From: Candidatus Multivoradales bacterium | Lineage (GTDB): Bacteria; Acidobacteriota; Thermoanaerobaculia; Multivoradales; JAHEKO01 | DNA: 64,000 bases | Reading direction: 5' to 3' | Assembly: GCA_965223855.1 (NCBI GenBank) | Contig: CBDCXM010000008.1 | Span: 512,001-576,000 of the forward strand | Part shown: piece after piece, positions 8,366-35,122 of the stretch | Numbering within the stretch: the stretch's first letter is position 1 | Layout: every line of letters begins with the position of its first letter | Position numbers and translations under genes: made by a program | Notes under the pieces: generated by a model | Seen by the model: the letters and a program-made list of their open reading frames with translations, nothing else | What the model was told of the DNA's origin: nothing | Databases searched by the model: none

Positions 8366-8857
8366 CTAGTCCCGCATGTTCACGAACCGGAACTCCGGCC
8401 CGAGATCCGCTTCCTTGACCATCGCGATCACCGCCTGCAGGTCGTCCCGCTTCTTGCCCGAGATCCGCACCTGATCGCCCTGGATCGCCGCCTGGACCTT
8501 CCTCTTCATCTGCTTCACCCGCTTGGCGATCTCCTTCGCGGTCTCCGCCTCGATCCCCTTGGCCAGGGTCACCGGCTGGCGGCGCATACTGTCGGCGGCG
8601 TCCTCCGCGGTCCCGAGGGTGAGGTTCTTGATCGACACACCGCGCTTGAAGAGCTTCGACTGCAGCACGTCAAGCACCGCCGCGAGCCGGTAGTCGTCCT
8701 CGCCGAAGAGAGTGATCTCGTGGGTCCCCTTCTCCCACTCGATGCGGCTCTTCGAGCCTCGGAAGTCGTAGCGCTGGGACAGCTCCTTGCGCGCCTGGTT
8801 GACGGCATTGTCGACCTCTGCGAGGTCGGTCTCGACGACGATATCGAACGAAGGCAT
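8366..8857 (-). CDS. yajQ: YajQ family nucleotide/c-di-GMP-binding protein
   Basis: MPSFDIV, RYDFRG, KVQAAIQGDQVRISGKKRDDLQ, FVNMRD. Confidence 0.95.
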   Translation of the reverse strand: MPSFDIVVETDLAEVDNAVNQARKELSQRYDFRGSKSRIEWEKGTHEITLFGEDDYRLAAVLDVLQSKLFKRGVSIKNLTLGTAEDAADSMRRQPVTLAKGIEAETAKEIAKRVKQMKRKVQAAIQGDQVRISGKKRDDLQAVIAMVKEADLGPEFRFVNMRD

Positions 8858-8930
8858 GGCGACTCCCAGGGTGTTGCGAGGGTTCGTGTTGCGAGGGTTC
8901 CGGGAGGTCGGCCCGGAGCTCTTTCGATGC

Positions 8931-9806: not shown

Positions 9807-9831
9807 CGGCCGCCACGCCCGGGAATGCGGC

Positions 9832-20682: not shown

Positions 20683-22092
20683 ATGACAGATCACGAGACT
20701 CCACCCGGGAGCGGCCTCTGGGCCGACATCCGCGCCGCCATCCTGGGCTCCCGGCAGGACTTCACGACGGGACCGATCGGCCGTGCCGTGCTCGTGTTGT
20801 CGATCCCGATGATGCTCGAGATGGTCGGTCAGTCGATCTTCGGCATCGTCGACGCGTACTTCGTCGGCCGGCTGGGCGAGGCGCCGCTAGCCGGCGTGGC
20901 CTTGACGGAATCGCTGCTCTACCTCGTTTTCGCCGTCGCCCTCGGACTCGCGATGGCGACGACCGCCTTCGTGGCGCGGCGGATCGGCGAGCAGGACGCC
21001 GAACGCGCCTCTCGCGGCGCGTTCCAGGCGCTCGTGCTCGGGCTGCTGTGCTCCCTGCCGTTCGCACTGATCGGCATCTTCTTCGCACCCCAGCTACTCT
21101 CGCTTCTCGGCGCGGAGCCAGAGACGATCGAGGCCGGCACCGGCTATGCGCAGATCGTGCTCGGCGGCAGCTCCACGGTCTTCTTCCTGTTCCTGATCAA
21201 CGCGATCTTCCGTGGGGCGGGCGACGCCACCCTGGCGATGAAGGCGCTGTGGATCGCCAACCTGCTCAACATCGCCCTCGACCCGATCCTGATCTTCGGC
21301 TGGGGGCCGATACCCGCTCTCGGAGTCACCGGCGCCGGAGTCGCCACCACGGTGGCTCGGGCGGTCGGTGTCGCCTATCAGCTGCGGCTGCTGTCGAAGG
21401 GTGTCGGGCGCCTGCACATCGCCCGCGACGCCGTCGGCCTCGACCGCGAGATTCAGCGCCGGCTCCTCAGGGTCGCCGGCCCCGGCATGCTGCAGTTCCT
21501 CGTCGGCACCTGCAGCTGGCTCGCGATCGTCCGCATCATCGCCGTCTACGGCACCGCAGCGCTCGCCGGCTATGTCGTCGCAGTGCGGATCCTCGTCTTC
21601 GCCCTGATGCCCTCCTGGGGCATGGCCAACGCCGCCGCCACCCTGGTCGGGCAGAACCTGGGCGCGTCAAAGCCCGAGCGAGCCGAGCGATCGGTGTGGC
21701 TGACCGCCGCCGCGAACTCGATCTTCCTCGGCGCCGTAGCGGTGATCCTCGTCGCCTTCGCTCAGCACCTGGTCGCACCCTTCTCGAACTCCGAAGAGGT
21801 GCTGCGCTTCGGCGCCGACTGCCTCCGTATCGTCAGCTACAGCTACGTCTTCTTCGGCGTCGGCATGGTGGCGATTCAGGCCTTCAACGGCGCCGGAGAC
21901 ACGACGACGCCGACCTGGATCAACTTCCTCTGCTACTGGGTCCTGCAACTGCCGCTCGCCTGGTACCTCGCCGAGCCCCTCGAGTGGGGCGCGCACGGCG
22001 TCTTCTGGGCGATCACCGCCACCCAGGGGGCGATCGCCGTCGTCGGAGCGCTCTGGTTCCGACGCGGGAGCTGGAAGGAACGGACGGTCTAG
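20683..22092 (+). CDS. MATE family efflux transporter
   Basis: About 12 TM helices, FRGAGD, NIALDPILIFG, LVGQNLGA, FNGAGDT. Confidence 0.93.
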   Translation: MTDHETPPGSGLWADIRAAILGSRQDFTTGPIGRAVLVLSIPMMLEMVGQSIFGIVDAYFVGRLGEAPLAGVALTESLLYLVFAVALGLAMATTAFVARRIGEQDAERASRGAFQALVLGLLCSLPFALIGIFFAPQLLSLLGAEPETIEAGTGYAQIVLGGSSTVFFLFLINAIFRGAGDATLAMKALWIANLLNIALDPILIFGWGPIPALGVTGAGVATTVARAVGVAYQLRLLSKGVGRLHIARDAVGLDREIQRRLLRVAGPGMLQFLVGTCSWLAIVRIIAVYGTAALAGYVVAVRILVFALMPSWGMANAAATLVGQNLGASKPERAERSVWLTAAANSIFLGAVAVILVAFAQHLVAPFSNSEEVLRFGADCLRIVSYSYVFFGVGMVAIQAFNGAGDTTTPTWINFLCYWVLQLPLAWYLAEPLEWGAHGVFWAITATQGAIAVVGALWFRRGSWKERTV

Positions 22093-22116
22093 CCCGTCTG
22101 CCTCACGCCTCGGCGC

Positions 22117-22836
22117 TCAGTCGACCGTGAAGGTTTGCAGCTCGACCGGCACCGGAGCGCCGTCGAGCGCGAACAGCAGGTCGGGGGCCGCGGCGCCGCA
22201 GCCGGAGCCCGCCTGCCACGAGAGGCAACCGGTACCGAAGCCGTCACCGGGGTTCTCCCACAGGAACTCGGCTCCCGTCTGCGTCGAACGCTCGCTCCAC
22301 AGCCACTGGCCGCCGACCGCCCTGTCCATCTGCACCCTGACCGACAGCCAGTAGTCACCCGGGGCGAGCTGGCACAGCGTCGGCAGGAAGATCTCGAAGC
22401 TCCCGGCGCCGTCGTCCGTGAAGTCGACCCCGGACTCGAGGCCGAGGTAACTGCAGGCCGCCGGCTCCGCCGGGAGCCCGCCGAGATCGCTGAAGAACTC
22501 CACATCGACGAGCGGTGCCGGACCGGGGCCGTTGAGATAGCTGCCGAGGACGCGCACTCCCCCGACATTCCAACCCTCGTCGGCCGCCGGAACGGAGAAA
22601 TCGTCCGCCGCGCGGCAGTCGAAGGCTGCATCGACCGGCTCGAAGATCTGGCTGGAAAAGCCGACCCCCGCCGGGTCGTCGGTCTGGTCGTAGAGGGTGC
22701 CGCCGAGGCTGGAACTCGCAGCGACCTCGGCCTCGAGTTCGGGCTCCGCCCTCAGGTCCGCCGTCGGCTGAGCCTCGGCGGCCGTGACCGCCACGAGGAA
22801 GGGCACCGCGGCTATCGCGATTCGTACCTTGGTCAT
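22117..22836 (-). CDS. Exported hypothetical beta-sandwich protein with C-terminal PVELQTFTVD tail
   Basis: RBS GGGAGA, signal peptide MTKVRIAIAAVPFLVAVTAAEA, LYDQTD...AADDFSVP, Cys pairs. Confidence 0.75.
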   Translation of the reverse strand: MTKVRIAIAAVPFLVAVTAAEAQPTADLRAEPELEAEVAASSSLGGTLYDQTDDPAGVGFSSQIFEPVDAAFDCRAADDFSVPAADEGWNVGGVRVLGSYLNGPGPAPLVDVEFFSDLGGLPAEPAACSYLGLESGVDFTDDGAGSFEIFLPTLCQLAPGDYWLSVRVQMDRAVGGQWLWSERSTQTGAEFLWENPGDGFGTGCLSWQAGSGCGAAAPDLLFALDGAPVPVELQTFTVD

Positions 22837-22856
22837 CTGCGCTTTCTCCCGTCGAA

Positions 22857-25073
22857 CTACGGAATCGTGTTGCTCCAGGCCGAGGTGTCTCCCGATTCGA
22901 AGCCGTCCTCGAAGATCGTCGACGGTTCGAGCTCGAGCAGCGAGACGTCGTCGACGAACGCGTCGACCGCGAGGCCGGCCGGCGACCGCAGCGTCACCGA
23001 ACACAAGGCCGAGGAGGTCGTCGGCGGCGTCGTGAGCTCACCTGCGAACGGCGTCCACACTCCCGACGTCGAGATGGTGTCGAAGAACGCCTGCGTCGGC
23101 AGGCTCGTGCCCGTGCAGTCGTCGGAGGAGAAGAAGTCGCACGCCCTCAGCACCTCGACCGTGCCGCCGGTGGTGTCGAGATTGACCGAACCGCTGAACT
23201 CGTACACGCCGTTCGAGCCGATCGGCACGCACTGGCCGATCGACAGATCGCCCGCGCCCGAGTCGATCTCGAACGCCGCCGATCCCGAGACGAGCGCGTC
23301 GTCGATGTCGGTCAGCGGGTCGTGGGTGATCGACGAGCCGAACTCGACGACCGGCACCCACGGCCCCAGATCGCAGTCGAAGTGGCCGCGGGCCAGGCGA
23401 TCGTTGGCATCGACGCGGAACTGACGCACGAAGTCGTCGCCGCCGATGAAGTCGCCGTCGCCGTCGAGCTCGTTGCCGGCCTCGTCGAGAAGGCCGCCGG
23501 GACCGCTGCAGGCGAGGACGCGGTACGGCCCGTCGATCAGCCCGTCCGGCTCGTCGAACAGGACGGTGGCCAGCAGGTCGGCCGCCTCGTAGTCGACCGT
23601 GTCGATCGGGATCAGCACGTCGTCGCCGACCGCCGGTCCGCAGGCGGTGGTCGACAGGTCGAGATCGGGCCCCGCGCCGACGATCTGCCACGAGGCAGGA
23701 TCGAGCACCGAGGCGACGTCCATCTCCTCGGAGAAGACGAAGCGGGCTCCGACCGTCTTGCGGAAGACGTTCTCGCATTCCTCCAGCGTGCCGTCACCGC
23801 TGAGCTTGATGCTGTCGATGTTGGCGATCGTCGGCGACAGCAGGTCGTTGATCGGGGTCGTGTCGCTGGCCATCGCCTCGACCGGCACGCCTCCGGTGCC
23901 GGCCCCGTCGTCCGCCATCGCCGCGTCGTTCGTGACGAGGTCCGGCGCATCCTGCGGCGGCACGACCTCGACCGCGAAGATCACGGTGTCGATCGTCTGT
24001 GCGGCGAGCAGGCCGTAGGTGAACTGACAGGGGGTCCCCTCGGGATCGCCGTCAGCACAGCTCCAACCGGCGGTCGAAGCTCCCGCATCGAACGTCGTGC
24101 CGGCCGGCACCGTCTCGTCGATCACCACCCCACTGGCATCCTGCAGTCCGGTGTTTTCGAGCGTCAGGGTGTACGGGATCGTCGTGCCCGGATCGAAGGC
24201 TCCGCCGCCGTCGTCCTTCGTCAGGGTGAAGGCGGGATCGGCGTCGATCGGGATGTCGGCCTGGGTCGTGTCGAAGAGCGGCGTCTTCGGCGACGAGATC
24301 TGCGCGGTGTTCGTGAACACCTCGAGGCCGGCGGCGACGGTCGCATCGACCACCGCCTCGTACAGCACCGTGACGGATCCCCCACCGCCCGGGACGGTGG
24401 TGACGGTGATGTCCACAGTGTTGCCGCCGCTGTTGTCGACTGCGCCTGAAGCGCCCCCTCCGAGGATCACCGAGATCGACCCGAGGTCGAGTGTCATCCC
24501 GGCGGGCAGCGCGTCGTTCACGTTGACGCTTACGTCGTCGCCGTTGCCGGTGTTGGAGAGGCTCACGGCATAGCTCAGCCGCTCGCCCGGATCGGCATCG
24601 CCGTCGTTGTTGCCGGCGCTGTCATCGACCGTCATCGTGGCACCGGCGAGATTCGGTGCGGCCAGCACGCTCGTCACGGTCGGATCCTCGTCGCCACCGA
24701 CATCGGGGTCGTCGCTGAGCAGTCCTCCCGCGAGATCGGGACTCGCCAGCGTCGCCTGCGAGGCCACCTCGGTGACGCTGTTGGGGAACGGGTTGTTGAC
24801 GGTGGCGGAGAAGAAGACCCGCAGAGTCTTGCCTTGCGGCAGAACCGGGATGGTGAAGGCGTTCGTCACCGGCCCTTCCGGAGCGTCGCCGCCCTTGCCG
24901 AGGCTCGGCCGATCGAATGCGCTGCCGGAGAGCTCTGCAGTTCCGGACGAAGACTCGCTCCGGACCTTCTGCCCAGCTTCCCGAGCCGCCGCCGCACTCG
25001 AGCCGACGGCCACGAGCAGGACGAGCCAGCTCGCCGGGTTCTTCCACCAGTCTCTTGCTCTGGATCCCATCAT
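22857..25073 (-). CDS. Exported DUF11-domain surface protein with CBM-like domain and C-terminal [14 protein letters not shown] tail
   Basis: Signal peptide; DUF11-type repeats PGERLSYAVSLSNTG..NDALPAG and LTKDD..PGTTIPYTLTLENTG..DETVPAG; acidic LDGDGD motif. Confidence 0.8.
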   Translation of the reverse strand: MMGSRARDWWKNPASWLVLLVAVGSSAAAAREAGQKVRSESSSGTAELSGSAFDRPSLGKGGDAPEGPVTNAFTIPVLPQGKTLRVFFSATVNNPFPNSVTEVASQATLASPDLAGGLLSDDPDVGGDEDPTVTSVLAAPNLAGATMTVDDSAGNNDGDADPGERLSYAVSLSNTGNGDDVSVNVNDALPAGMTLDLGSISVILGGGASGAVDNSGGNTVDITVTTVPGGGGSVTVLYEAVVDATVAAGLEVFTNTAQISSPKTPLFDTTQADIPIDADPAFTLTKDDGGGAFDPGTTIPYTLTLENTGLQDASGVVIDETVPAGTTFDAGASTAGWSCADGDPEGTPCQFTYGLLAAQTIDTVIFAVEVVPPQDAPDLVTNDAAMADDGAGTGGVPVEAMASDTTPINDLLSPTIANIDSIKLSGDGTLEECENVFRKTVGARFVFSEEMDVASVLDPASWQIVGAGPDLDLSTTACGPAVGDDVLIPIDTVDYEAADLLATVLFDEPDGLIDGPYRVLACSGPGGLLDEAGNELDGDGDFIGGDDFVRQFRVDANDRLARGHFDCDLGPWVPVVEFGSSITHDPLTDIDDALVSGSAAFEIDSGAGDLSIGQCVPIGSNGVYEFSGSVNLDTTGGTVEVLRACDFFSSDDCTGTSLPTQAFFDTISTSGVWTPFAGELTTPPTTSSALCSVTLRSPAGLAVDAFVDDVSLLELEPSTIFEDGFESGDTSAWSNTIP

Positions 25074-25080
25074 CGCCCGC

Positions 25081-25380
25081 CTATGTGAAGACTGCCTCGT
25101 ACTTCATCCCGTGCTCGTCGGGGCCGATCGGCACCAGGAACAGCTCCATCGTGCCGGTCGCCTCCCCTTCCACGCGGTAGGTCTGCTGGAGCGGCTCCGC
25201 AGTCTGCGGCCCACGCAGCACGACCGAGAACGGCATGCGTCCGTTCGGGCCCCGCGTCTCTCCCATCGGCGCCACCTCGACCACCTCGGCGTCGAAGCTC
25301 GTCTCGTCACCCTCGACACGCACCCTGCGGCCGACCAGCGGCTTCAGAGCTTCCATCTCGACCGTACCGACGTCGATCAT
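25081..25380 (-). CDS. DUF6916-like small protein (99 aa)
   Basis: PFSVVLRGP...QQTY...LFLVPIGP...YEAVF; ATGA overlap with the GNAT stop; this family is typically found next to tail-collar/GNAT genes. Confidence 0.8.
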   Translation of the reverse strand: MIDVGTVEMEALKPLVGRRVRVEGDETSFDAEVVEVAPMGETRGPNGRMPFSVVLRGPQTAEPLQQTYRVEGEATGTMELFLVPIGPDEHGMKYEAVFT

Positions 25381-25862
25381 GCGCCAGCCTCCGCCACCAC
25401 AGCGGGCGCCCACTCCATCAGCCAGTAGACTCCCTGATCCTCGACCCGGCTGAAGCCGAGGCGTTCGTAGAGTCGCATCGCCGGGTTGTTCTGCTCGACG
25501 TGAATCCGCACCTTCTTGCCGTTCCCGGCCGCCTCGTCGAGCACGTCCCGCATCAGCCGCCGGCCCAGACCCGCTCCGCGCTTCTCGGGTACCAGGGCGA
25601 TATCGATCACCCGGTGCTCGTCGTCGCGACGATCGAGATAGAGCCTGCCGATCGGTGTGCCGTCTTCGAGCACGAGGTCGAAGCTCGCGTCGGGGAATTG
25701 CTCCTGGTAGAAGCGATGCTGCGCTTCGAACTGCTGCAGGAGGAAAGCCTGCTTCTCCTCGTCCGACCACGGCACGACCGCCACCTCTTCCGCGCGAGTC
25801 GAAGCATAGAGCTCGCGCAGGAAGGGTCGGTCTGCCTCAGTGATCGGGCGGAACGTCAGCAT
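25377..25862 (-). CDS. GNAT family N-acetyltransferase
   Basis: LYASTR, QQFEAQH, IDIALVPEKRGAGLG acetyl-CoA motif, NPAMRLYERLGF. Confidence 0.92.
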   Translation of the reverse strand: MLTFRPITEADRPFLRELYASTRAEEVAVVPWSDEEKQAFLLQQFEAQHRFYQEQFPDASFDLVLEDGTPIGRLYLDRRDDEHRVIDIALVPEKRGAGLGRRLMRDVLDEAAGNGKKVRIHVEQNNPAMRLYERLGFSRVEDQGVYWLMEWAPAVVAEAGA

Positions 25863-25878
25863 GGAGCGGTCGCAGTCC

Positions 25879-26394
25879 TCAGCTTCGTGACGGATAGAGC
25901 CCGACGAGGGCGATGATGAAGGTCAGCACCAGGAACGGCTGCAGGTTGTTGTGAGCCTGGCCTCCCCCCTGGGCGACGAGAGAATTGCCCTTCATCGCCT
26001 GGAGGTTGTTCGCCGCGGCGTAGATGCCGTTGTCGCCGCCCGTGTAGTTGTTCTGAGGGTCGTTGTCTTCGCCCTCGTTCTCGTTGTTGCCGACCAGGGT
26101 GTGAGTGTGGTTCGGCATCTGCGCTTCGGTGAGGGTCACCGTCTCGACACCGCCCCTCTGACCGAGCCGGCGCGAGGTCAAACCGGGACCGCGGCCGGGA
26201 TGCATCGGCGCTCGCCCCTGGAGGTTCGGTAGCGCCGTGGTCGTCCGGCCGTCACCACCGTAGGTGGTGCCGATCAGCGAGAAGAGCGCCGTGTTCTGGG
26301 AGATCGGCAGCAGCTGTCCGTCACAGAACGCCCAGCCCCTGGGAGCGAAGTTGCCGGCGAAGATCCTGATCTCTGCAATGAAGGGTTCCGACAT
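25879..26394 (-). CDS. Phage tail collar domain protein (microcystin-dependent protein-like), paralogue 3
   Basis: FAGNFAPRGWAFCDGQLL..LFSLIGTTYGGDG..LPNLQGR; MPNHTH; HNNLQP..FIIAL.G.YPSR. Confidence 0.93.
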   Translation of the reverse strand: MSEPFIAEIRIFAGNFAPRGWAFCDGQLLPISQNTALFSLIGTTYGGDGRTTTALPNLQGRAPMHPGRGPGLTSRRLGQRGGVETVTLTEAQMPNHTHTLVGNNENEGEDNDPQNNYTGGDNGIYAAANNLQAMKGNSLVAQGGGQAHNNLQPFLVLTFIIALVGLYPSRS

Positions 26395-26403
26395 GGCTGT
26401 CTC

Positions 26404-26925
26404 CTAGTGGCGCGACGGGTAGATCCCGAAGAGCGCGATGATGAAGTTGATGCAGAGAAAGGGCATCAGGTTGGTATGGGACTGGCTGCCGCCGACATTC
26501 GTCACCGCCGAGGATGCGTAGTTGACGGTGCCGTCGTCCACGTTGTCGATGTAGATGTCGGGCTGCGACTGTGCGAGCAGCGCACCGGAAGGGCTGGCGG
26601 CGTTGGCCGTCGCCGTGGTCCCCTGCCACTGGTGGCGGTGAGACGGCAGCTGGTTGACGGTGACCGTCTCCTTCTCGCTGCCGAGCTTGGCGCCGAGACG
26701 CCGCGCGCTCAGACCTGGCCCTGTACCGGCATGGATCGGGAGGCGACCCCGCAAATCGGGCAGGCCGAAGGTCGTCCGTCCGTCGCCACCGTAGATCGTG
26801 CCGAGCAGGCTGAAGAGAGCATCGTTCTGGGAAACCGCCAGCAACTGGCCGTCGCAGAAGGCCCAGCCCCGCGGCGCGAAGTTGCCGGCGAACATTCTGA
26901 TTTCACCAACGAAGGGTTCTGACAT
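26404..26925 (-). CDS. Phage tail collar domain protein (Mdp-like), paralogue 2
   Basis: GEIRMFAGNFAPRGWAFCDGQ..GGDGRTTFGLPDLRGR; LPSHRH; HTNLMP. Confidence 0.93.
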   Translation of the reverse strand: MSEPFVGEIRMFAGNFAPRGWAFCDGQLLAVSQNDALFSLLGTIYGGDGRTTFGLPDLRGRLPIHAGTGPGLSARRLGAKLGSEKETVTVNQLPSHRHQWQGTTATANAASPSGALLAQSQPDIYIDNVDDGTVNYASSAVTNVGGSQSHTNLMPFLCINFIIALFGIYPSRH

Positions 26926-26934
26926 CGGTCTCTC

Positions 26935-27453
26935 CTAGTTGCGCGACGGGAACAGGCCTTGAAGGGCGATGCAGAAGTTCAAGGCCAGGCACGGTTGCAT
27001 GTTGTTGTGAGCCTGCCCTCCACCGACGGCGGAGGAATTGGCGTTGGTCATCGCCACGGCCGGCGACGACGCAACGTTGTTGTAGACGTTCGCAGCCACC
27101 GTCCCGAGGACGCGGCCGTCGGCGTTGGTCTGAGTCGCCGAGGCCGTACTCCCCTGCACCGTGTGGTTGTGCTGGGGCATCTCGCCGGCCGACAGCGTGT
27201 GGTTCTCCTCGCCGCTCTTCTGGCCCAGAGTATGAGAGGTGCCGTTGCTCGAGCCGACGTGGATCGGCGTGCGGCCGCGCAGATCGGGCAGCGCGAAGCT
27301 CGTCCGGCCGTCGCCACCGTAGGTGGTGCCCAGGAGGGAGTACAGGCTCTGGTTCTGGTTGATCGGCAGGATCTGGCCGTCACACAAGGCCCACCCGCGA
27401 GGAGCGAAGTTGAAGCCGACGATACGTACCTCGGCTAGGAAGGGCTCTGACAT
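26935..27453 (-). CDS. Phage tail collar domain protein (Mdp-like), paralogue 1
   Basis: FNFAPRGWALCDGQ..GGDGRTSFALPDLRGR; MPQHNH; HNNMQP..CIALQGLFPSRN. Confidence 0.93.
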   Translation of the reverse strand: MSEPFLAEVRIVGFNFAPRGWALCDGQILPINQNQSLYSLLGTTYGGDGRTSFALPDLRGRTPIHVGSSNGTSHTLGQKSGEENHTLSAGEMPQHNHTVQGSTASATQTNADGRVLGTVAANVYNNVASSPAVAMTNANSSAVGGGQAHNNMQPCLALNFCIALQGLFPSRN

Positions 27454-27523
27454 GGCTCTGTTCTCCTCTCTGCTTTCTGGTTGACGCTGAGCTTCTGGTT
27501 CCCGGTAGCGGCTCTATTGGTCC

Positions 27524-30500
27524 TCACGGCAGGGTTCCGTCGTGAGTCGGCTGGGTGCAGGACGCCACCGCGCCGAAGTTGGGGCTGCCGGCCGTCGTCA
27601 CGTTGCCGGCCGGAATTCCGTTGGCGCTCGCCAGGTTGGCGGCGCTCGTCTGAACGATGTTGAGATCGGCTCCGCTGTCCTCGTCGACCACCAGCGTGCC
27701 GCCGCCCGACGCCAGGGTGTTGCCCGACATGTTGAGGCAGAGCACCGACCGGCCGTTGGCGCCGACCGGGCCGTCCTCCGAATCAGCCTCGAGTTCGTCG
27801 CCGGTCCCCTGGTTCGTCAGGGTGTTACCCGTGACGGTCGCGTTGAGTGTTGCGCCCGGATTGAGAGTCGTGCCATCCGGGTTGTCCACTTCCGACTCGA
27901 GATCGATCGACTCCGACGAACTGTCGTTGTTTACGATGTTGTTGCCCGAGATCAGCGTGTTGACGTTGATCGCGTTGTTCGGGTTCGGCGGAATGTTTCG
28001 CGACTGAACCCGGAACTCGATGCCGTGCTCGGCAATCGGGTCCGTCGCCGAACCGATGTTGTTGCCCTGAATGGTGATGTTCCCGAGCACCGTCGAGTCC
28101 CGCAGGTAGAGGAAGATCGCGTCCTCGTCGAGCACATCACGGATGGTGTTGTTGGAGATGACGGCATCGACCTCGGTGGCGTTGTCGTCGCCGATGATCC
28201 GCAACGCCTGCTCGATCTCGACGTCCTCGATGAGGTTGTTGCGGAATCGCAGCCGCAGCGTCGAGTCGTCGTTGGCAACGAAGTCGGCGACGCCCACCTG
28301 CGAACTCACCGGCAGCACACCCGCCTGGGTACCGGTGTCCTGGAAGACGTTGTTCTCGATCGTCGCCCGCAGGGTCCCCGTGCCGGCCAGGAGCGACGTG
28401 AGACGCGAGACGCCCCCTTCGCAGTTGGGCAGGTTGACGCAACCGCCCGTTCCGTTGGGGTTCGAGAAGTTCTGCGTCGAGGTGAAGCAGGAGTTGCGCA
28501 GGTTGAGAGTGATCGTCGAGGAACCCTCGGGGTTCACCTGAACGCCGTCGCCGAACATCGAGTCGAACTGATTGAAGCCGGCCCCGGTGGTGCCGGTGCA
28601 GGTGGTCGAATCCGGCGTCGACGAGCCGACGACGTCGATCCGCATCACCGAGTTGCCGAGGCCATTGACGAACACCCCGTCGTTGCCGCCGAGGTTCTGG
28701 CCGATGAACAGGCTGTCCCTCACCTCGAAGAGCGTGAGGTTCGTGTTGGTGTTGACGATTCGGATGCCGTCGCCGCTTGTCTGCGAGATTCCGGTAACGA
28801 TCCCGGCGCGGAAGCCGCCGCTGCCGGTGAGGTTGACCGCGTTGATGCCGTGCTCGATGTTCCCGTCGCCGGGGCTCGTGAGATTGAGCGAAGTAGCGCT
28901 GAAGCTGTCGGTGCCGCTCAGCGAGATGCCGTGGCTGGTGGTGTTCTGGATCGTGCCGCCGGAGCCGTTTCGGGTGTTCGAGCCGTCGCCGGTGATCGTC
29001 AGGCCGCCCCCGGTGCCGGTGTTGAAGAGCACGATGCCGCTAGTGGAGCCGTTGGACGAAACCGAGCGGAAGGTCAGGCCACTCGAACCGATCGTCGTGT
29101 TGAGGATGTGGATCCCGATGCCGGTCCCCGAGTTGACCGTGTGGGTGTCCGTCGAGTCGTTCTGGACGGTGCCACCACTGGTCGCGGAGAAGCCGTAACC
29201 GGTGGTTGTGTCGAGGTCGAGCGCGCCGTTGAAACTGAACGTCACGCCGGTGTTGTTCGTAAGATCGATCGCGTTCGCAAGCGAAGTGTCCGCGTCGATC
29301 GCGACACCGATCGTCTGGGAGCCGCCGGTGTTGTTCGACGCCTGGTAGGCGGCGGAGGCGTTGGCCTGAGTGATTCCGCCACCCTCGTAGTTCACCGTCG
29401 GCGCGCTGTTGGAGACATTCACGGCAGGACCGGTCGGGCTGGTGATCGTCGTGTTGGCGAACGTGAACGTGCCGCTGCTCGAAGTCAGGATGTCGATACC
29501 GGCGTCGCCGCCGTTGAGCGTCACCGCGCCGTCGAACCTGACCGTCCCGTCGGCGTTGCTCAGCCGAATGCCCGTGCCGTTGGTCGCGCTGACGGAGCCG
29601 TTGAAGTCGACGATCGCACCCAACGGGGTGTGATTCAGGATCTCGACAACGGGGGCATTGTTCGCCTGGGTGAGGGAACCATCGAAATTGACGAAGCACT
29701 GGGCGAGGTCAATTCGGAAGGCGGCACCGGTCGGACTGGTGACGGAGACTCCGCTCCCGAAGTTGAACGTCCCACCCGAGTTGTTGATGATGTCGATCCC
29801 GGCGTCACCGCCATTCAGCGTCACCGTGCCGTTGAAGGTGTAGACCCGATCCGCGTCGCTGAACTGCAGACCGTTCCCGTTCGTCGCGTTGATCGTGCTC
29901 GAAGCGTCGAAGACGATCGGCGCGCCGGTCGTGGTGTGGTTCGAGATCGAAACCGTCGTCGCGTTGTTGGCCTGGACGATCGACCCGCTGTAGGTGAGCC
30001 CGAGGATGTCGCCCGTCAGCCCATCGACGTTGAAAGCGGTCCCGGACGGGCTTGTAATCGAGGTGCCGGTGCCGAAGGTGAAGGAGCCGGACGAACCGCC
30101 GAGGATGTCGATCCCGGCGTCGCCACCGTTGAGTGTCGTCGTGCCGTTGAAGTTGTAGGCGGCGCCGTCGGCGTCGTTGAACTGCAGGCCGGTGCCATTG
30201 GTGGCACTGATCGTTCCCGTCTGGAAAGTGACCGTGCCTGTCGTGTGGCTAGAGATGTCCACGGCAGGCGCGTTGTTCGCCTGCGAGATGTTGCCGCTGT
30301 AGGTGACGCTCGCGGTCCCGCCAGTCAACCGGAAGGCGGCGCCGGTCGTGTTCGTGATCGAGGAGGCCGCGTCGAAGTTGTAGCTGGCCGAACCTCCCGA
30401 GATGCTGACACCGAACGAGCTGCCGGTCGAAGCGTCCAGATTGTCGACGTCGATCGTCCCGGTGGCGTTGGTGAACTCGATACCACTGCTGCCGCCGTTG

Positions 30501-33070
30501 AGACCGGTGTCCGAGACCGTCACGCCGTTGCTGCCGTTGGCGACAATGGAGGTGCCGAGAGGATTGGTGACGTCCAACCCTCGCACGGTGTTGCCGCTGG
30601 CAAGCAGGATCACGTTGCCCGAGTTCGTCAGTTCGGGACGTCCTGCGACTCCGGGGAGGGTGGCCGAGAAGGTGGGCGGCGTGAGCCCGGCGCCCGTCGC
30701 CAGATCCACGCCCTGACCGATCAGGAGCTGGTTGTCCTTGAGCGTGATGCCCTGAGAGTAGTTGGTCGTAGTGCCGTCACCCTCGTAGAGGAAGATGACG
30801 TCGCCCGGGTCGTCCGACGCCGGGACCATGTCGCCGATGTTGTCGAAGGGCGCGGCCAGGGTGCCGGTCCCGCCGGCCGCCGCCGTGTTGTCGATGAACC
30901 AGATCGTGTTCGCCACCGTGACGTTCACCGTGCAGGCGGCCGAATCGCCGAAGCCGTTGCCGACCGTGTAGGTGAAGGCGTCCACCCCGGTGAAGCCGGG
31001 GCCGCTGGTGTAGTCGAAGCCGCCGTCGGTCGCCACCACCGCTGTGCCGCCGCTGGTCGGCGCGGTGTTGCCGGTGACGGTGATCTGGTCGCCGGTGTCG
31101 CCGATCAGCACGCCGCTCGTGTTCGGCACCGAGATGCCGACGTTGCCGAGCGCATCGTAGTCGTCGTCGGGCGTCAGCTCGTCGTCGCACTGCGGGCGCG
31201 TGCCGACGGCGATCGTCACCGTTGCGTCGGAGAAGCCCGCGGCGTTCTGAATCCGGTAGCCGAACATGTCGGGCCCGGTGAAGGTCGCGCTCGGCGGGGT
31301 GTAGACGAAGTTGCCGTCCGCCGACACGACGACGGTGCCGCCGTTGTCGGTCGCGGTCGCAGCGCCCGGCACGGTCTGGTCGGTCGGGCTCGCCGAGGTG
31401 CCGTAGGAGACGACGTCGGCGAGCGGGAAGCCGCGATCGTCGTTGTCCATCACCGACGGCGTGGCGTGCGCGGTGCTGTCGAGCGTCGTGTTGATCGCCG
31501 TGTGGAAAGCATCGCCGGGGCTCGAGAGCATGTCGGGCAGGTCGGCCACCGCGGTCGGCGGCGCCTGGACCTCGACGGTAACGACCGCCGTGTCGCTGCC
31601 GACCGAGTTGGTGACCTGGTACTCGAAGGTGTCGACCCCCGAGAACGTCGGCGCGCCGGTCGCGTCGTACGTGAAGGTACCGTCGCCGCTGACGTCGAAG
31701 GTCACCATGTTGCCGTTCGCGGTGGTGAGGGCGGCGCCGGGTGCGGTCGTGAGCGGCCCCCCTACCGGACCGTAGAGGTCGACGACCCCGGCGGGGATGC
31801 CGAAGTCGTCGGCGCCGCTGCCGTTGTCGGCCGCTGCGTCGAACATCGCCGATGTGTTCTGCGTGATCGTGATCGCGTCGTCCTGGAGCGCCGGCGGCAG
31901 CCCGAGAATGATCGAGGCGGTCGCACTGTCGGTCGCCGGGCTCGACGGCGGGATGCCGTTCTGGACGTCGTAGGTGAAGGTGTCGATCTCGCCCCCGGTC
32001 GCACCGGGAGGCGGCGTGTAGGTGAACGAGCCGTCGGCATTGATATCGACGCTGCCGCCGAGCGTAGTCGGCTCTGCGACCACAGGGAGCACCGCCAGGG
32101 TCGGCGTGCCGGGGATGCCGAAGTCGTTGTCGAGCAGCACCGGCTGGAGGGTCCCGTCGACCGTCACCGGGTTGACCGGATGCCCCTCGTAGAGGCCGTC
32201 GTCCACCGCAAGCGGCGTCGTAGTCGCTGCGTCGGCCGCCGTCACGTTGGGATCGAGATTGACGTCGAAATCGGCCTGATCGATGTCGAAGGCGCCGGTG
32301 TTCGAAAGCTCGACCTCGTAGGAGATCGTGTCGCCAGGCACCGCGGTCGTACCGGGGGCATCGACCATCGTCATCGTCGCCTGCGCGCAACTGCCGACGC
32401 CGATCCTGACGTTCGACACCCACTCGTTGAACGGCGTCGAAGACGCGAGCTCCACGGAGAGGATCGGATCTCCGGCTCCGGACACACCGAAGAACTCGCC
32501 GGTCGCCGAGGCGGGCACGATGAACGCCTGCGTGCCGGAGAGGGTGAACTCGACGGTGACCGTCCAGGTGTCGCTCGCCTGCGCGTAGGCGTCGAAGCCA
32601 AGGGCACAGATCTCGTCGGCGTCGGGACCGGCGAAGTCGATCCGCAACGCTTCCGGGGCGGTGATCGTCCCCACCAGAACGTCGGTCTGGCCCAGCGTCC
32701 CGGTGTCCACCGCGAGCGGGCAGTCCCCTGGGCAGCCGGCATAGCCTCCGCCCACCGTCTCGACCACGAGCCTCGGGTCGATCGTCCCCGGCGCGAAGCA
32801 GGCGTCGTTCGAAGCTGCATCGATCGGCTCGTCGCAGCCGCCCTGGGCGTTCGGCGCTACCAACGTCGCCGAGAAGTCCTCGACCGGCAACCCCGGAAAC
32901 GCGGCGTCGAACGTAGCTGCGTCCGAGTACGTCTGGAACAACCCCTCCGGGCCCTGCGCCGCGGGAGCTTCCCGAACCGGCCCCCCCGCCTCGTCTGCCC
33001 AGATCATCGGAGCGATCGCGGCGACACCGACGGCAAAGGCCACCGTCACGGCCAGGGTGCGTAGGCGCAT
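27524..33070 (-). CDS. Giant exported adhesin-like protein (about 1848 aa): N-terminal domain, half DUF11, about 4 Ig/cadherin-like (Big_9-type) domains, long parallel beta-helix
   Basis: RBS GAGGA and signal peptide MRLRTLAVTVAFAVGVAAIAPMIWA; repeats DG.F.YTP..F.G.D.F.Y; Asn/Gly/Thr-rich repeats containing LNGGDAGIDI. Confidence 0.85.
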   Translation of the reverse strand: MRLRTLAVTVAFAVGVAAIAPMIWADEAGGPVREAPAAQGPEGLFQTYSDAATFDAAFPGLPVEDFSATLVAPNAQGGCDEPIDAASNDACFAPGTIDPRLVVETVGGGYAGCPGDCPLAVDTGTLGQTDVLVGTITAPEALRIDFAGPDADEICALGFDAYAQASDTWTVTVEFTLSGTQAFIVPASATGEFFGVSGAGDPILSVELASSTPFNEWVSNVRIGVGSCAQATMTMVDAPGTTAVPGDTISYEVELSNTGAFDIDQADFDVNLDPNVTAADAATTTPLAVDDGLYEGHPVNPVTVDGTLQPVLLDNDFGIPGTPTLAVLPVVAEPTTLGGSVDINADGSFTYTPPPGATGGEIDTFTYDVQNGIPPSSPATDSATASIILGLPPALQDDAITITQNTSAMFDAAADNGSGADDFGIPAGVVDLYGPVGGPLTTAPGAALTTANGNMVTFDVSGDGTFTYDATGAPTFSGVDTFEYQVTNSVGSDTAVVTVEVQAPPTAVADLPDMLSSPGDAFHTAINTTLDSTAHATPSVMDNDDRGFPLADVVSYGTSASPTDQTVPGAATATDNGGTVVVSADGNFVYTPPSATFTGPDMFGYRIQNAAGFSDATVTIAVGTRPQCDDELTPDDDYDALGNVGISVPNTSGVLIGDTGDQITVTGNTAPTSGGTAVVATDGGFDYTSGPGFTGVDAFTYTVGNGFGDSAACTVNVTVANTIWFIDNTAAAGGTGTLAAPFDNIGDMVPASDDPGDVIFLYEGDGTTTNYSQGITLKDNQLLIGQGVDLATGAGLTPPTFSATLPGVAGRPELTNSGNVILLASGNTVRGLDVTNPLGTSIVANGSNGVTVSDTGLNGGSSGIEFTNATGTIDVDNLDASTGSSFGVSISGGSASYNFDAASSITNTTGAAFRLTGGTASVTYSGNISQANNAPAVDISSHTTGTVTFQTGTISATNGTGLQFNDADGAAYNFNGTTTLNGGDAGIDILGGSSGSFTFGTGTSITSPSGTAFNVDGLTGDILGLTYSGSIVQANNATTVSISNHTTTGAPIVFDASSTINATNGNGLQFSDADRVYTFNGTVTLNGGDAGIDIINNSGGTFNFGSGVSVTSPTGAAFRIDLAQCFVNFDGSLTQANNAPVVEILNHTPLGAIVDFNGSVSATNGTGIRLSNADGTVRFDGAVTLNGGDAGIDILTSSSGTFTFANTTITSPTGPAVNVSNSAPTVNYEGGGITQANASAAYQASNNTGGSQTIGVAIDADTSLANAIDLTNNTGVTFSFNGALDLDTTTGYGFSATSGGTVQNDSTDTHTVNSGTGIGIHILNTTIGSSGLTFRSVSSNGSTSGIVLFNTGTGGGLTITGDGSNTRNGSGGTIQNTTSHGISLSGTDSFSATSLNLTSPGDGNIEHGINAVNLTGSGGFRAGIVTGISQTSGDGIRIVNTNTNLTLFEVRDSLFIGQNLGGNDGVFVNGLGNSVMRIDVVGSSTPDSTTCTGTTGAGFNQFDSMFGDGVQVNPEGSSTITLNLRNSCFTSTQNFSNPNGTGGCVNLPNCEGGVSRLTSLLAGTGTLRATIENNVFQDTGTQAGVLPVSSQVGVADFVANDDSTLRLRFRNNLIEDVEIEQALRIIGDDNATEVDAVISNNTIRDVLDEDAIFLYLRDSTVLGNITIQGNNIGSATDPIAEHGIEFRVQSRNIPPNPNNAINVNTLISGNNIVNNDSSSESIDLESEVDNPDGTTLNPGATLNATVTGNTLTNQGTGDELEADSEDGPVGANGRSVLCLNMSGNTLASGGGTLVVDEDSGADLNIVQTSAANLASANGIPAGNVTTAGSPNFGAVASCTQPTHDGTLP
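29330..30350 (-). repeat. Three intragenic repeats of about 100 aa (300-320 bp) in the beta-helix
   Basis: QANNA..ATNG.G.....ADG...F.G..TLNGGDAGIDI...S.G.F.F....TSP.G occurs three times (cores near 30120, 29800, 29500). Confidence 0.8.
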
Positions 33071-33125
33071 CAATGTTCCTCGAGAGGTGGTCACGGTCGG
33101 CTGGCTTCCGGCAGGCCTTCAGGCC

Positions 33126-33638
33126 CTAGCGGCGGCTCGACTTCTTGGCGGCTTTCTTCTTGGCGGCCTTCTTCGCCGTTTTCTTCACCGCCTTCTTCGC
33201 GGCCTTCTTGGCCGGCTTCTTGCCGTCACCCTTCTTGGCCGGCTCGTGGACTGCCACGAAGCTCGCCTCGGCCGTGTGGCCCCAGTGGGTGTGCCGGACG
33301 ATGTAGCGCTTGCCGTCGGCCAGCTTGGAAACGTCGATCGAGATCGTCTCGACCTCCCGCAGGCCGTGACCGCCGGGCACAGTGGCGGTGGCGAAGGTCT
33401 GCGTCGCAGCCTTCACCGAGCTGCCGCAGGCCAGGTCGGAGCGGGCGATCTCCTGGGCGTTCTCGTCGAGCACCTGGAGAAGGTGGGCACTGTGCGGCTC
33501 GTGGGTCCCGACCACGTAGTGCTCCTCGCCGTCGTTGTGGAGCGTCGCCAGCACTTCGATGGGCAGCGTCTTGCGCCGGCTCGAGATCACAACCAGAGGC
33601 TCGACCTCGATCTCGGCCCGGATGCGGTTGGTTTCCAT
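33126..33638 (-). CDS. Hypothetical protein with histone H1-like Lys/Ala-rich tail
   Basis: RBS GGAGA; beta-rich N-domain; tail PAKKAAKKAVKKTAKKAAKKKAAKKSSRR. Confidence 0.75.
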   Translation of the reverse strand: METNRIRAEIEVEPLVVISSRRKTLPIEVLATLHNDGEEHYVVGTHEPHSAHLLQVLDENAQEIARSDLACGSSVKAATQTFATATVPGGHGLREVETISIDVSKLADGKRYIVRHTHWGHTAEASFVAVHEPAKKGDGKKPAKKAAKKAVKKTAKKAAKKKAAKKSSRR

Positions 33639-33868
33639 GCCTCAATCTCCTGTTGGGGCGGCGCCGACCAGGGCACCGCACGATTGTCGAAGTGCCGGCA
33701 TCGACCGGCTGTCGTACCAGGACACTTCGCGGATGCGAAGCGCCCACGTGTCCCTGAACGCAAACCCGAAACGAAAAGTGACAAAGAAACAGTTGTCGAA
33801 GGGTAGCACAGCCGTTGGATCGGTCCGCCGGCGTCGGGCGCGTCGCCTGCCGATAGACTCCGCCGGTC

Positions 33869-35122
33869 ATGCGGGTCGCCTTCCGACAACTCGGCTGCAA
33901 GCTCAACCAGGCGGAGCTCGAGGCGATGGCCAGGGAGTTCACGGCCGCCGGGCACCGCGTCGTGGCGGAAACCGAGGAGCCGGATCTCTTCGTCGTCAAC
34001 ACCTGCACCGTGACGCAGGCCGCGGCCAGGGACTCGCGCAAGGCCGCGAGAAAGGGTTCCCGGCTCGGCGCGACCCGCACGGTGATCACCGGCTGCTATG
34101 TCGAGTCGGACCGGGAAGAGGCGGCGGCGTTGGCCGGCGTCGATCTGGTGGTCGCCAACGCCGACAAGGAACGGCTGCTCGAGATCGTGGAGCGCCGCTT
34201 TCCCGAGCTGGCCACGAACGGACAGGAAGACCTCCCCTACCTGCCGATCGGGTTCGGTCACTCGCGGGCGCTCGTCAAGATCGAAGACGGCTGTGACATG
34301 CAGTGCTCGTTCTGCATCATCCCCTCGACCCGCGGCCGCCAGCGCAGCCGCGCCCCCGAGGAGGTGGTGACCGAGGTGCGAGGCCTGATCGAGCGCGGCT
34401 TCGAGGAGGTGGTCGTCACCGGGGTGCAGATCTCCTCGTATCGTTACGGCGAGGCGCGGCTGTACGACCTCACCCGCCGAATGCTGGCCGAGACCTCCGG
34501 GGCGCGCTTCCGGCTGTCGTCGATCGCCCCGTGGGAGTTCGACGAGCGGCTGCTCGATCTGTTCGTCGACGATCGGATCTGCAGGCACTTCCACCTGTCG
34601 CTCCAGAGCGGCGACGGCGCCACCCTGCGGCGCATGCGGCGGCCGTACGACACCGATGGCTTCGCGACGCTGACCCGGCGGATTCGCCGGCGGGTACCCG
34701 GCATCGCGCTCACCACCGACGTCATCGTCGGCTTCCCGGGTGAGACGGACGAGGCGTTCGAGCGCTCCCTCGCCTTCGTCGAGGGCGAGCGCTTCGCCCG
34801 CATCCACGCCTTCCCCTTCTCGAGCCGTCCGGGTACCCCGGCGGCCGCGCTTCCCGACCCGGTTCCCCACGAAACGATTCGGGCCCGGATGCGGCGCATG
34901 CTCGCCGTCGCCGAGAACGCCGAGCGCGACTTCGCCCGTCGGCAGCTCGGCAGCACCGGTTCGGTGCTGTGGGAGGCTCGCGAAGGCGACCTGTGGCGCG
35001 GGACGACCGACAACTACGTGCGCGTGAGGGCGCTGAGCTCGCGGGATCTGGGCCGGCAGGTCGTGCCTGCCGAGCTGCTGTCGATCGAAGGCGGCTGGAT
35101 CGACGCTCGGGTGAGCGCGTGA
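33869..35122 (+). CDS. mtaB: tRNA t6A37 methylthiotransferase (radical SAM, MiaB family)
   Basis: LGCKLNQAE, VVNTCTVT, TGC, radical SAM motif GCDMQCSFC, HLSLQSG, DVIVGFPGET, HAFPFS.RPGT, TDNY. Confidence 0.88.
   Translation: MRVAFRQLGCKLNQAELEAMAREFTAAGHRVVAETEEPDLFVVNTCTVTQAAARDSRKAARKGSRLGATRTVITGCYVESDREEAAALAGVDLVVANADKERLLEIVERRFPELATNGQEDLPYLPIGFGHSRALVKIEDGCDMQCSFCIIPSTRGRQRSRAPEEVVTEVRGLIERGFEEVVVTGVQISSYRYGEARLYDLTRRMLAETSGARFRLSSIAPWEFDERLLDLFVDDRICRHFHLSLQSGDGATLRRMRRPYDTDGFATLTRRIRRRVPGIALTTDVIVGFPGETDEAFERSLAFVEGERFARIHAFPFSSRPGTPAAALPDPVPHETIRARMRRMLAVAENAERDFARRQLGSTGSVLWEAREGDLWRGTTDNYVRVRALSSRDLGRQVVPAELLSIEGGWIDARVSA

Follow-up and report, generated by a model that had tools for sequence, protein, structure and literature searches.

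The question raised by the locus described here is what three small proteins with the collar domain of phage tail fibers are doing in a bacterial chromosome, next to the gene of a giant exported protein. The locus lies in a stretch of 64,000 nucleotides from Candidatus Multivoradales bacterium (positions 512,001 to 576,000 of the forward strand of contig CBDCXM010000008.1, NCBI GenBank assembly GCA_965223855.1), which is referred to as the window and whose numbering is used throughout. According to the list of open reading frames (ORFs) and their translations, positions 22117-33638 of the window hold nine tightly packed genes on the minus strand, g1 to g9. Six of these, g2 to g7, form the cassette that is considered here, comprising the giant protein, three collar proteins (PF07484), a GNAT protein and a DUF6916 protein. 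The answer that we favor, with a probability of about 0.5, is that this cassette may encode a tailored heterotrimeric binding knob that acts together with the giant protein at the cell surface. The six genes are as follows (aa, amino acids).

27524-33094, minus strand: g2, the giant protein, 1856 aa from a GTG start, with an alternative ATG start at 33070.
26935-27453, minus strand: g3, collar protein of type A, 172 aa, matching PF07484 at 4.7e-29 (100.6 bits).
26404-26925, minus strand: g4, collar protein of type B, 173 aa, matching PF07484 at 5e-30 (103.7 bits).
25879-26394, minus strand: g5, collar protein of type C, 171 aa, matching PF07484 at 6.7e-29 (100.1 bits).
25377-25862, minus strand: g6, the GNAT protein, 161 aa, matching Acetyltransf_1 (Pfam) at 2.4e-15.
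25081-25380, minus strand: g7, the DUF6916 protein, 99 aa, matching PF21880 (Pfam) at 4.1e-25.

The successive intergenic gaps from g1 to g9 are 31, 70, 9, 9, 16, -4, 7 and 20 bp, the value of -4 being an ATGA overlap between the stop codon of g6 and the start codon of g7. The close packing on one strand described in an initial annotation of this DNA, which was made from the letters alone, is therefore confirmed. The proposal that all nine genes form one unit holds for the six conserved genes, g2 to g7, and fails for g1, g8 and g9, which are shared only with a genome of the same genus. A scan of positions 21900-34000 gave 0 promoter-like and 3 terminator-like sites, fewer than in shuffled sequences, and is uninformative at 68% GC. 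Sec-type signal peptides are seen in g2, g8 and g9 and not in g3 to g7, as judged by eye from the translations, without a predictor.

The surroundings of the cassette are those of a chromosome. The 16 flanking ORFs encode housekeeping proteins of the MATE, PCMT, RmuC, radical SAM, TldD, SpoIIE, sigma-54 activator, UvrA, GDSL and FadL kinds, and no phage, type VI secretion system (T6SS) or integrase family is found among them; sheath, tube, baseplate and spike genes accompanying the fiber genes are likewise absent from the window. The proteins g3 to g5 are the only three PF07484 matches in the whole genome (4.52 Mb, 92% complete), which also has a single DUF6916 protein and in which Baseplate_J and Phage_GPD were not found. 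One sheath-like gene is present on another contig, C9 (G000:C9:1462179-1463546, plus strand, 455 aa; L087:680-2047), scoring 2.4e-14 with Phage_sheath_1 and 2.6e-13 with Phage_sheath_1C; it stands alone among pyruvate:ferredoxin oxidoreductase (PFOR), citrate-transporter, esterase and MbtH genes and overlaps or abuts the ORF of a TonB-dependent receptor. The phage-free setting noticed at first reading is thereby supported, and the cassette is a chromosomal, non-phage, local copy of a widespread unit.

How widespread this unit is was examined by two surveys. The survey seeded with DUF6916 gave 126 relatives, of which 80 loci were kept, and the survey seeded with the type-B collar, in a search set having one genome per species, gave at least 590 matching stretches, of which the best-scoring 80 loci were kept, a selection that leans to close type-B relatives. 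When pooled, these 160 loci cover 14 named phyla, including the monoderm Bacillota. Collars and a GNAT gene adjoin DUF6916 in nearly all of the 80 DUF6916-seeded loci. Among the 51 collar-B-seeded loci with at least 4.5 kb on each side (the full-flank loci), exactly three collars are present in 47, a GNAT gene in 48, a DUF6916 gene in 43 and, no more than 2.5 kb away, an ORF of 700 aa or longer in 46; 19 have a homologue of g2. What is conserved is a cassette of six genes: the giant, three collars, GNAT and DUF6916. This survey of gene neighborhoods, which had been suggested in the initial annotation, shows that the triplets are consistently linked to large ORFs and bears out the place of the GNAT and DUF6916 genes in the cassette.

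Two layouts of the cassette are seen. In this genome and in Flavobacterium all cassette genes are codirectional, whereas in many other phyla the DUF6916 gene converges on the GNAT gene, the 3' ends often overlapping by about 8 bp. The same-genus genome G003 has all nine genes, with DUF6916 codirectional with GNAT (ATGA overlap), and in G018 and G012 the cassette is at the same chromosomal site with DUF6916 convergent on GNAT. Programmed inversion of g7 was suspected because of this difference in direction between DUF6916 here and in its relatives, and was rejected, as no convincing pair of inverted repeats at the gene borders and no invertase was found. Three relatives of the family carry the cassette at the corresponding place in the chromosome, and DUF6916 is the common element among the relatives at this site. 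Among 40 relatives the distribution of DUF6916 is patchy, being found in 1 of 4 genomes of the genus, 8 of 24 of the family and 14 of 16 of other families of the order (counting the unpublished G005).

One part of the evidence for the favored reading comes from the three collar proteins. Their scores of about 100 bits are to be compared with the PF07484 gathering cut-off of 24 bits, and the tail and tail-fiber families of PHROGs align across collar residues 7-164. The presumed head region matches Gp10_C below the cut-off of 27 bits, with 24.5 bits for g3 (5.6e-05) and 17.3 and 19.5 bits for g4 and g5, respectively. A profile of the type-B collars matches solved tail-fiber structures at 1.3e-08 to 4.9e-05, the best being 8kec (1.3e-08), with phage T4 gp12 (1ocy) at 3.9e-06. 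A tree built from the 180 collars of 60 cassettes divides the proteins by gene position into three clades. In each of the A and B clades, 57 of the 60 rows expected from gene position are found, with a Shimodaira-Hasegawa-like approximate likelihood ratio test (SH-aLRT) support of 96, and the position label changes 7 times on the tree, versus 85 times when labels are shuffled. By best match, 57 of the 60 cassettes contain each of the three types once, the remaining three being low-margin calls, and the order ABC is kept in 54 of the 60. As judged by this tree, the collars are three ancient paralogue types, A (g3), B (g4) and C (g5), in fixed order, which agrees with the first description of them as three paralogues. 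Two complete triplets in tandem are seen in some genomes (L115, L117, L152, with ABCABC, and L108), the ABC order being kept in each copy.

The presence of one each of A, B and C per cassette is the pattern that an obligate heterotrimer predicts, and it is most likely, as far as sequences can tell, that A, B and C fold 1:1:1 into a heterotrimeric knob. An experimental precedent for such a complex may be seen in the virophage DSLV2, where three consecutive PF07484 proteins co-purify as one heterotrimer, in a complex of approximately 55 kDa (PMC12724248). The theoretical mass of that trimer is 58.3 kDa, its chains are about the size of g3 to g5 and have collar and head regions, and in the DSLV2 and Aquatic Virophage 1 lineage the three small consecutive genes are also in fixed order and their proteins also form position-specific clades, according to the parts of the paper that were available (PMC12724248). 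The DSLV2 genes are viral, being located beside capsid genes, and their products are proposed there to bind Synechococcus lipopolysaccharide for virion attachment (PMC12724248). The genes g3 to g5 differ from these in being chromosomal and nonviral, in having housekeeping flanks and in being accompanied by GNAT, DUF6916 and a giant exoprotein. In the same available parts of the DSLV2 paper no GNAT, DUF6916 or giant protein appears, and neither 'bacterial genomes' nor 'prophage' is used anywhere in that paper (PMC12724248).

The collars combine a conserved body with variable tips. In all three alignments the majority-residue frequency is 0.8-0.9 in residues 1-60 and drops to 0.27-0.48 in the blocks covering residues 101-140, such that residues 1-60 and about 141-170 are highly conserved and residues 100-140 are hypervariable in each of the three chains. 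The alignments of A, B and C, with 38 rows each, show no exception to either histidine of an HxH motif. By analogy with T4 gp12, these histidines are candidate metal ligands on the three-fold axis. The positions of these elements are given below, the motifs having been checked by translation.

27163-27171, minus strand: HNH motif of g3 (His95 and His97), candidate metal ligands.
26632-26640, minus strand: HRH motif of g4, the counterpart of the HNH motif of g3.
26101-26109, minus strand: HTH motif of g5, the counterpart of the HNH motif of g3.
27034-27156, minus strand: hypervariable stretch of g3, residues 100-140, presumed to be the distal, ligand-binding part.
26506-26628, minus strand: hypervariable stretch of g4, equivalent to residues 100-140 of g3.
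25975-26097, minus strand: hypervariable stretch of g5, equivalent to residues 100-140 of g3.

The proteins g3 to g5 are 72-73% identical to the collars of G018, as compared with 55-60% for the flanking housekeeping genes, and by this comparison the collars are slow-evolving overall. The DUF6916 protein (36-49% identity) and the giant (29%) drift fast by comparison. The N-terminus of the collars is also well conserved. The 405 collars of both surveys begin with M-[AS]-[EDQ]-P-[FY] and go straight into the collar domain, the residue after the initial methionine being A or S in 381 of them, the third residue E, D or Q in 368, the fourth P in 389 and the fifth F or Y in 402; g3 to g5 (171-173 aa) begin with M-S-E-P-F, 6-7 residues ahead of the collar match. 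As the 405 collars start directly at the collar domain, they have neither a signal nor a shaft. The model of the collar A monomer has a mean predicted local distance difference test (pLDDT) score of 50.5 and is too poor for a fold comparison. When A, B and C were predicted together with DUF6916, with DUF6916 as the scored chain and without controls, the scores were 0.22 and 0.21 with a mark of 0.32, which leaves binding undecided either way.

A comparison with the tips of phage fibers (T4 gp12, PDB entries 1OCY and 5IV5; the C-terminal domain of gp10; 8KEC) shows the same collar domain, HxH motif and, presumably, variable head. In phages, such a tip forms the C-terminal end of a long homotrimeric fiber mounted on a baseplate, whereas g3 to g5 are stand-alone proteins with three distinct chains and no virion or shaft, and no baseplate or tail genes were found with them. 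Cellular, nonphage collar proteins tied to interactions between organisms are also known, such as RhiB of the quorum-sensing-regulated rhiABC(D) operon of Rhizobium leguminosarum and the COG4675 protein MdpB. COG4675 carries the name 'microcystin-dependent protein', and to our knowledge the cellular collar proteins (COG4675/MdpB, RhiB) have been without an assigned function for decades. RhiB is assigned to COG4675 (PMC6969944) and to PF07484 (PMC13133039), and COG4675 proteins have been detected in soil metaproteomes (PMC5579227), each as stated in the accessible portions of these papers. By the published description, as far as it was accessible, RhiB alone of the rhiABC products carries a collar domain, and neither GNAT, DUF6916 nor a giant is reported with it; genes of the luxI/luxR type lie beside rhiABC(D), and the 16 flanking ORFs here include neither an autoinducer synthase nor a LuxR gene. 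The collar domain is also reused by a cellular appendage in the PilV-collar shufflon fusion, for which recipient recognition has been proposed and which, in the sections available, is described as a single fused gene subject to programmed inversion (PMC9881135); at the present locus there is no invertase and there are no convincing inverted repeats around g7. In the literature, supplementary gene lists not being covered, no publication on this cassette and none on DUF6916 was found.

The GNAT protein g6 has as its best NCBIfam match RimI (TIGR01575), with 45.4 bits and a cut-off of 86.4, which is below the equivalog level, and its nearest solved chains, among them N-terminal acetyltransferases, are weak matches. 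It resembles RimI by weak similarity, without being a member of that family, and no equivalog-level match to RimJ or RimL was found either. The protein g7 was first called DUF6916-like, and the family was correct and the qualifier was not: it is a true DUF6916 protein, with 88.1 bits versus a PF21880 cut-off of 27 and alignment of profile positions 2-91 of 91. Its AlphaFold2 model (pLDDT 89.9) has an N-terminal helix followed by a six-stranded barrel, of which the best structural neighbors are the YcgR-N/PilZ barrels (Z 7.9, root mean square deviation 2.8 over 86 residues for 5y6f), a value that lies within the background of the tool, 7-8, and is a lead only. A Foldseek search with this model gave nothing at E <= 0.001, and an informal comparison of g7 by eye gave no match to PilZ-type cyclic di-GMP motifs.

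What DUF6916 might do is suggested by its natural fusions. Of 29 longer DUF6916 proteins, 14 are GNAT-DUF6916, 4 are alpha/beta-hydrolase-DUF6916 and 2 are S-adenosylmethionine (SAM) methyltransferase-DUF6916 fusions; in 6 fusions that were scanned, DUF6916 is at the C-terminus or within about 15 residues of it. The GNAT half of one natural GNAT-DUF6916 fusion is 47% identical to g6, and a hydrolase-DUF6916 fusion lies inside a cassette (L027). Five long DUF6916 ORFs (L049, L071, L119, L175 and L189) were discarded as fusions, since only PF21880 was found in them and they are probably over-extended frames, and no GNAT-DUF6916 fusion occurs among 148 GNAT ORFs in the 160 loci. These fusions demonstrate that DUF6916 is linked to enzymes. 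Being fused C-terminally to GNAT, hydrolase and methyltransferase domains, DUF6916 looks like a recognition or adaptor domain that would bring a cytoplasmic modifying enzyme to its target. A comparable logic is known from the recognition element of ribosomally synthesized and post-translationally modified peptides (RiPPs), a small domain that occurs free or fused to unrelated modifying enzymes. The analogy concerns the free and fused use with GNAT, hydrolase and methyltransferase domains; there is no relation in sequence or fold, DUF6916 being a beta-barrel, and its substrate would be a folded protein and not a leader peptide. Our guess is that the N-termini of the collars are the substrate. 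An acetyl-lysine on DUF6916 itself was considered and dropped, because Lys93 is invariant in an 11-row alignment and not in a 51-row one.

The cell surface as the place of action is indicated by the giant proteins. In g2 an N-terminal signal peptide, as seen by eye, is followed by Big_9/cadherin-like immunoglobulin (Ig) repeats (Pfam Big_9 at 2.6e-17 and Cadherin_5; the NCBIfam tandem-95 repeat), by a repeat region of approximately 1100 aa and by a short C-terminal module with a cysteine. The C-terminal 1100 residues or so have no Pfam match; the Atlas cluster nearest to the repeat region is Beta_helix (PF13229, 0.96), which is a lead only, and the region is read as a putative right-handed beta-helix. 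Sequence in common with g2, in its final Ig repeats and in parts of the putative beta-helix, is found in 34 giant-like ORFs, from 33 of the 80 DUF6916-seeded loci, and the homologous core in giants of other phyla corresponds to g2 residues about 580-1020 and 1270-1450. The C-terminal cysteine module (27524-27760 in g2) is present in 18 of 20 aligned giants from outside Bacteroidota, with the cysteine within about 12 residues of the end, and a second cysteine about 60 residues upstream is often present in the giants of L007-L080. We know of no sorting signal that this module resembles. Por_Secre_tail, the sorting domain of the type IX secretion system (T9SS), is found in 3 of 3 Bacteroidota giants tested, an S-layer homology (SLH) module in the giant of Paenibacillus and an autotransporter barrel in that of Ruegeria sp. 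TM1040. Every giant tested carries the surface-display module of its own lineage, and such lineage-specific modules suggest that the system acts at the cell surface. The link between collar triplets and large surface proteins that the initial annotation had proposed is thus well founded.

Taken together, these data are consistent with the following mechanism. Three stand-alone paralogues of a tail-fiber tip, each with a collar and a head, would fold 1:1:1 into one knob, which a metal bound at the invariant HxH motifs may clamp, and a ligand-binding face that evolves fast would be made up of the distal loops, at about residues 100-140 in each chain. GNAT and DUF6916 would act as a dedicated cytoplasmic tailoring pair that handles the knob before use, the DUF6916 barrel being the portable recognition or adaptor module and GNAT the enzyme that it serves here, with the conserved free collar N-termini, M-[AS]-[EDQ]-P-[FY], as the best guess for the substrate. 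The knob and the adjacent giant would then form, as the gene neighborhood suggests, an adhesion or target-recognition device at the cell envelope.

Several observations weigh against this tailored surface knob. No signal-like N-terminal extension is found among the 405 collars, and a Tat-type (twin-arginine translocation) DUF6916 protein is absent from this genome, where the single DUF6916 protein is without a signal and the frame upstream of it is the GNAT gene. The export of the collars is therefore as unexplained as it was when the absence of signal peptides in g3 to g5 was first noticed, an absence that inspection by eye and the 405 relatives bear out. The acetyl-CoA- or SAM-dependent partners of DUF6916 place the tailoring step in the cytoplasm, and the 10 longer GNAT relatives include no GNAT-collar fusion. 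Between lineages the giants lack homology, a homologue of g2 being limited to 19 of the 51 full-flank loci, and a fixed attachment site on the giant is made less likely by the lack of a shaft or docking segment in the collars. Display of the trimer on the giant, which was part of the original proposal, is for these reasons not borne out. The reduced variants also count here. At L191 in G014 (G014:C1, locus 8848-9817), one B-like collar with a different N-terminus is followed directly by DUF6916, and no GNAT or giant was found at this locus by homology. At L101 in G009 (G009:C23:3960-5441; a genome that is 62% complete), only a g1-like gene, GNAT and a convergent DUF6916 are present, and collars and giant were not found.

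A possible way out of the cytoplasm is offered by other lineages. A DUF6916 paralogue with a Tat signal is present at 15 of 65 loci, one of them doubtful, with 10 neighboring ORFs in a separate count. In 16 Bacteroidota loci a protein of about 223 aa with a Tat-like signal and no Pfam family lies directly upstream of the collars (e.g. L079:7089-7760). Export of signal-less partners by hitch-hiking on a Tat substrate is known for hydrogenase-2 and dimethyl sulfoxide (DMSO) reductase of Escherichia coli. The likeness is in the Tat-signal DUF6916 of other lineages beside signal-less collars; the difference is that the present genome has TatC without a Tat-signal DUF6916, so that the hitch-hiker route cannot apply in it. 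A bolder form of the model, 'tailor, then hitch-hike', would have DUF6916 recognize the folded knob of collars, as a portable domain with two uses. In the first, DUF6916, free or fused to a GNAT, esterase or methyltransferase, would deliver covalent tailoring in the cytoplasm, the most economical target being acetylation of the three Ala/Ser N-termini that would meet at the top of the trimer; in the second, a Tat-signal DUF6916 would carry the finished, metal-loaded heterotrimer through the Tat system. As a whole this bolder form is unlikely. If it is true, bacteria of many phyla would be equipping their giant surface proteins with a receptor-binding tip domesticated from phages, and the genomes without a Tat copy would reveal a second exit.

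Of the readings that compete with the tailored surface knob, the one that survives best, though it is unlikely, is that the knob is released as a soluble lectin-like or bacteriocin-like factor acting on other cells, with the giant merely a frequent neighbor because both belong to accessory cell-interaction islands. It would account well for giants that are unrelated across lineages (autotransporter, T9SS cargo, SLH, Big_9/beta-helix), for the 5 of 51 full-flank loci that have no ORF as long as 700 aa in the vicinity and the scarcity of g2 homologues, for the missing shaft or docking segment and for the hypervariable tips. Like the favored reading, it is in line with the finding of a PF07484 protein, at most a candidate cassette member, of Ruegeria pomeroyi (YP_165745.1; a species outside the 80 collar-B-seeded loci) in culture exoproteomes, in the part of that study that was available (PMC4949626), and it also agrees with a signal of positive selection in collar paralogues of Solibacter, as given in the available part of the report (PMC3174227). 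A released factor would, however, leave the large ORF within 2.5 kb at 46 of 51 loci and the display module on every giant tested to chance, which is improbable; the cassette has no lysis, immunity or toxin gene according to Pfam, NCBIfam and PADLOC, and a secretion signal is missing.

That missing signal also fits a second alternative, which we regard as quite unlikely, namely that the collars stay in the cytoplasm as a decoy or poison subunit against incoming phage fibers, or as a sensor of glycans or precursors, with GNAT and DUF6916 as effector or regulator. It agrees with the absence of signal peptides from the 405 collars, the GNAT and this DUF6916, with the fusion of DUF6916 to cofactor-dependent cytoplasmic enzymes, with the lack of a Tat-type DUF6916 in this genome and with a patchy distribution, like that of accessory or defense genes (22 of 41 genomes, counting the unpublished G005). 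An identity as an anti-phage defense system was nevertheless rejected, because none of 8 cassette proteins matched a PADLOC defense family; the consistent link of the cassette to giant surface proteins and the Tat-signal DUF6916 paralogues at 15 of 65 loci, which point to the periplasm, also speak against cytoplasmic collars, and the pairing of hypervariable tips with a highly conserved body is typically seen in proteins that bind receptors outside the cell.

It is very improbable that GNAT and DUF6916 are a separate, hitch-hiking module, such as a GNAT toxin with its antidote or a pair for small-molecule acetylation. The variant of G009, which keeps GNAT and a convergent DUF6916 at the same site, and loci that hold DUF6916 alone (e.g. 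L083) would fit such a module, but the G009 genome is merely 62% complete, GNAT and DUF6916 are present at 48 and 43, respectively, of the 51 collar-B-seeded loci, and in G014 DUF6916 stands beside a single collar, with GNAT not found. Fusion of DUF6916 to hydrolases and methyltransferases is also unlike an antitoxin, and Pfam shows no ribbon-helix-helix (RHH) or DUF1778-type partner, the partner of GNAT being a DUF6916 barrel that is also fused to GNAT. Finally, that the genes are remnants or detached parts of a prophage, tailocin, extracellular contractile injection system (eCIS) or T6SS encoded elsewhere in the genome is hardly credible, in spite of the match of the collars to phage tail-fiber families, the sheath-like gene on contig C9 and the collar triplets matched on five IMG/VR contigs, given that the sheath-like gene stands by itself, with PFOR, transporter, esterase and TonB-receptor genes around it, that Baseplate_J and Phage_GPD were not found in the 92%-complete genome, that the flanking ORFs hold no phage genes, and that the same site is occupied in three relatives of the family and the same fixed cassette recurs in 14 phyla.

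The remaining three genes of the locus are the following.

33126-33638, minus strand: g1, 170 aa, no family match.
22857-25073, minus strand: g8, DUF11-repeat protein, 738 aa, matching DUF11 (Pfam) at 4e-16.
22117-22836, minus strand: g9, 239 aa, no family match.

The last 40 or so residues of g1 are rich in Lys and Ala and resemble a histone H1 tail; no homologue was found in the 80 DUF6916-seeded loci and no family in Pfam, PADLOC or PHROGs. The gene has been retained at this chromosomal site in G003, and also in G009, where collars and giant were not found, and it belongs to the chromosomal site rather than to the cassette. For g8, NCBIfam adds B_ant_repeat and an isopeptide-type domain; a homologue adjoins the cassette at 2 of the 80 loci and a syntenic one, with 55% identity, is present in G003. 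For g9, no family was found in Pfam, NCBIfam, PADLOC or PHROGs and no homologue in the 80 loci, and its counterpart in G003 is 65% identical. From these comparisons g1, g8 and g9 appear as local passengers outside the conserved system. A Sortilin-Vps10/BNR-repeat protein of 1092 aa (11860-15138, minus strand), 7 kb from the cassette, is apparently unrelated to it. In Ruegeria sp. TM1040 (L104), two hypothetical proteins of 405 and 297 aa without a Pfam family lie inside or beside the cassette on the megaplasmid NC_008043.1, at 294016-295233 between collar C and GNAT and at 296382-297275 after DUF6916.

The cassette is common, with at least 590 stretches matching collar B when one genome per species is searched and with carriers in 14 phyla, including monoderms, and through it the cellular collar proteins acquire definite partners and a model that can be tested. 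The DUF6916 fusions are a lead on the maturation of the knob, and since carriers are found among cultivable strains (Ruegeria sp. TM1040, Sulfidibacter corallicola, Marinicella, Flavobacterium, Dyadobacter and Paenibacillus) genetics is possible. If the reading is true, the triplet would be an obligate ABC fiber tip outside viruses and a natural scaffold with three independently variable loops. A heterotrimeric, fast-evolving cellular binding head of this kind would be a new class of recognition device made from a phage part.

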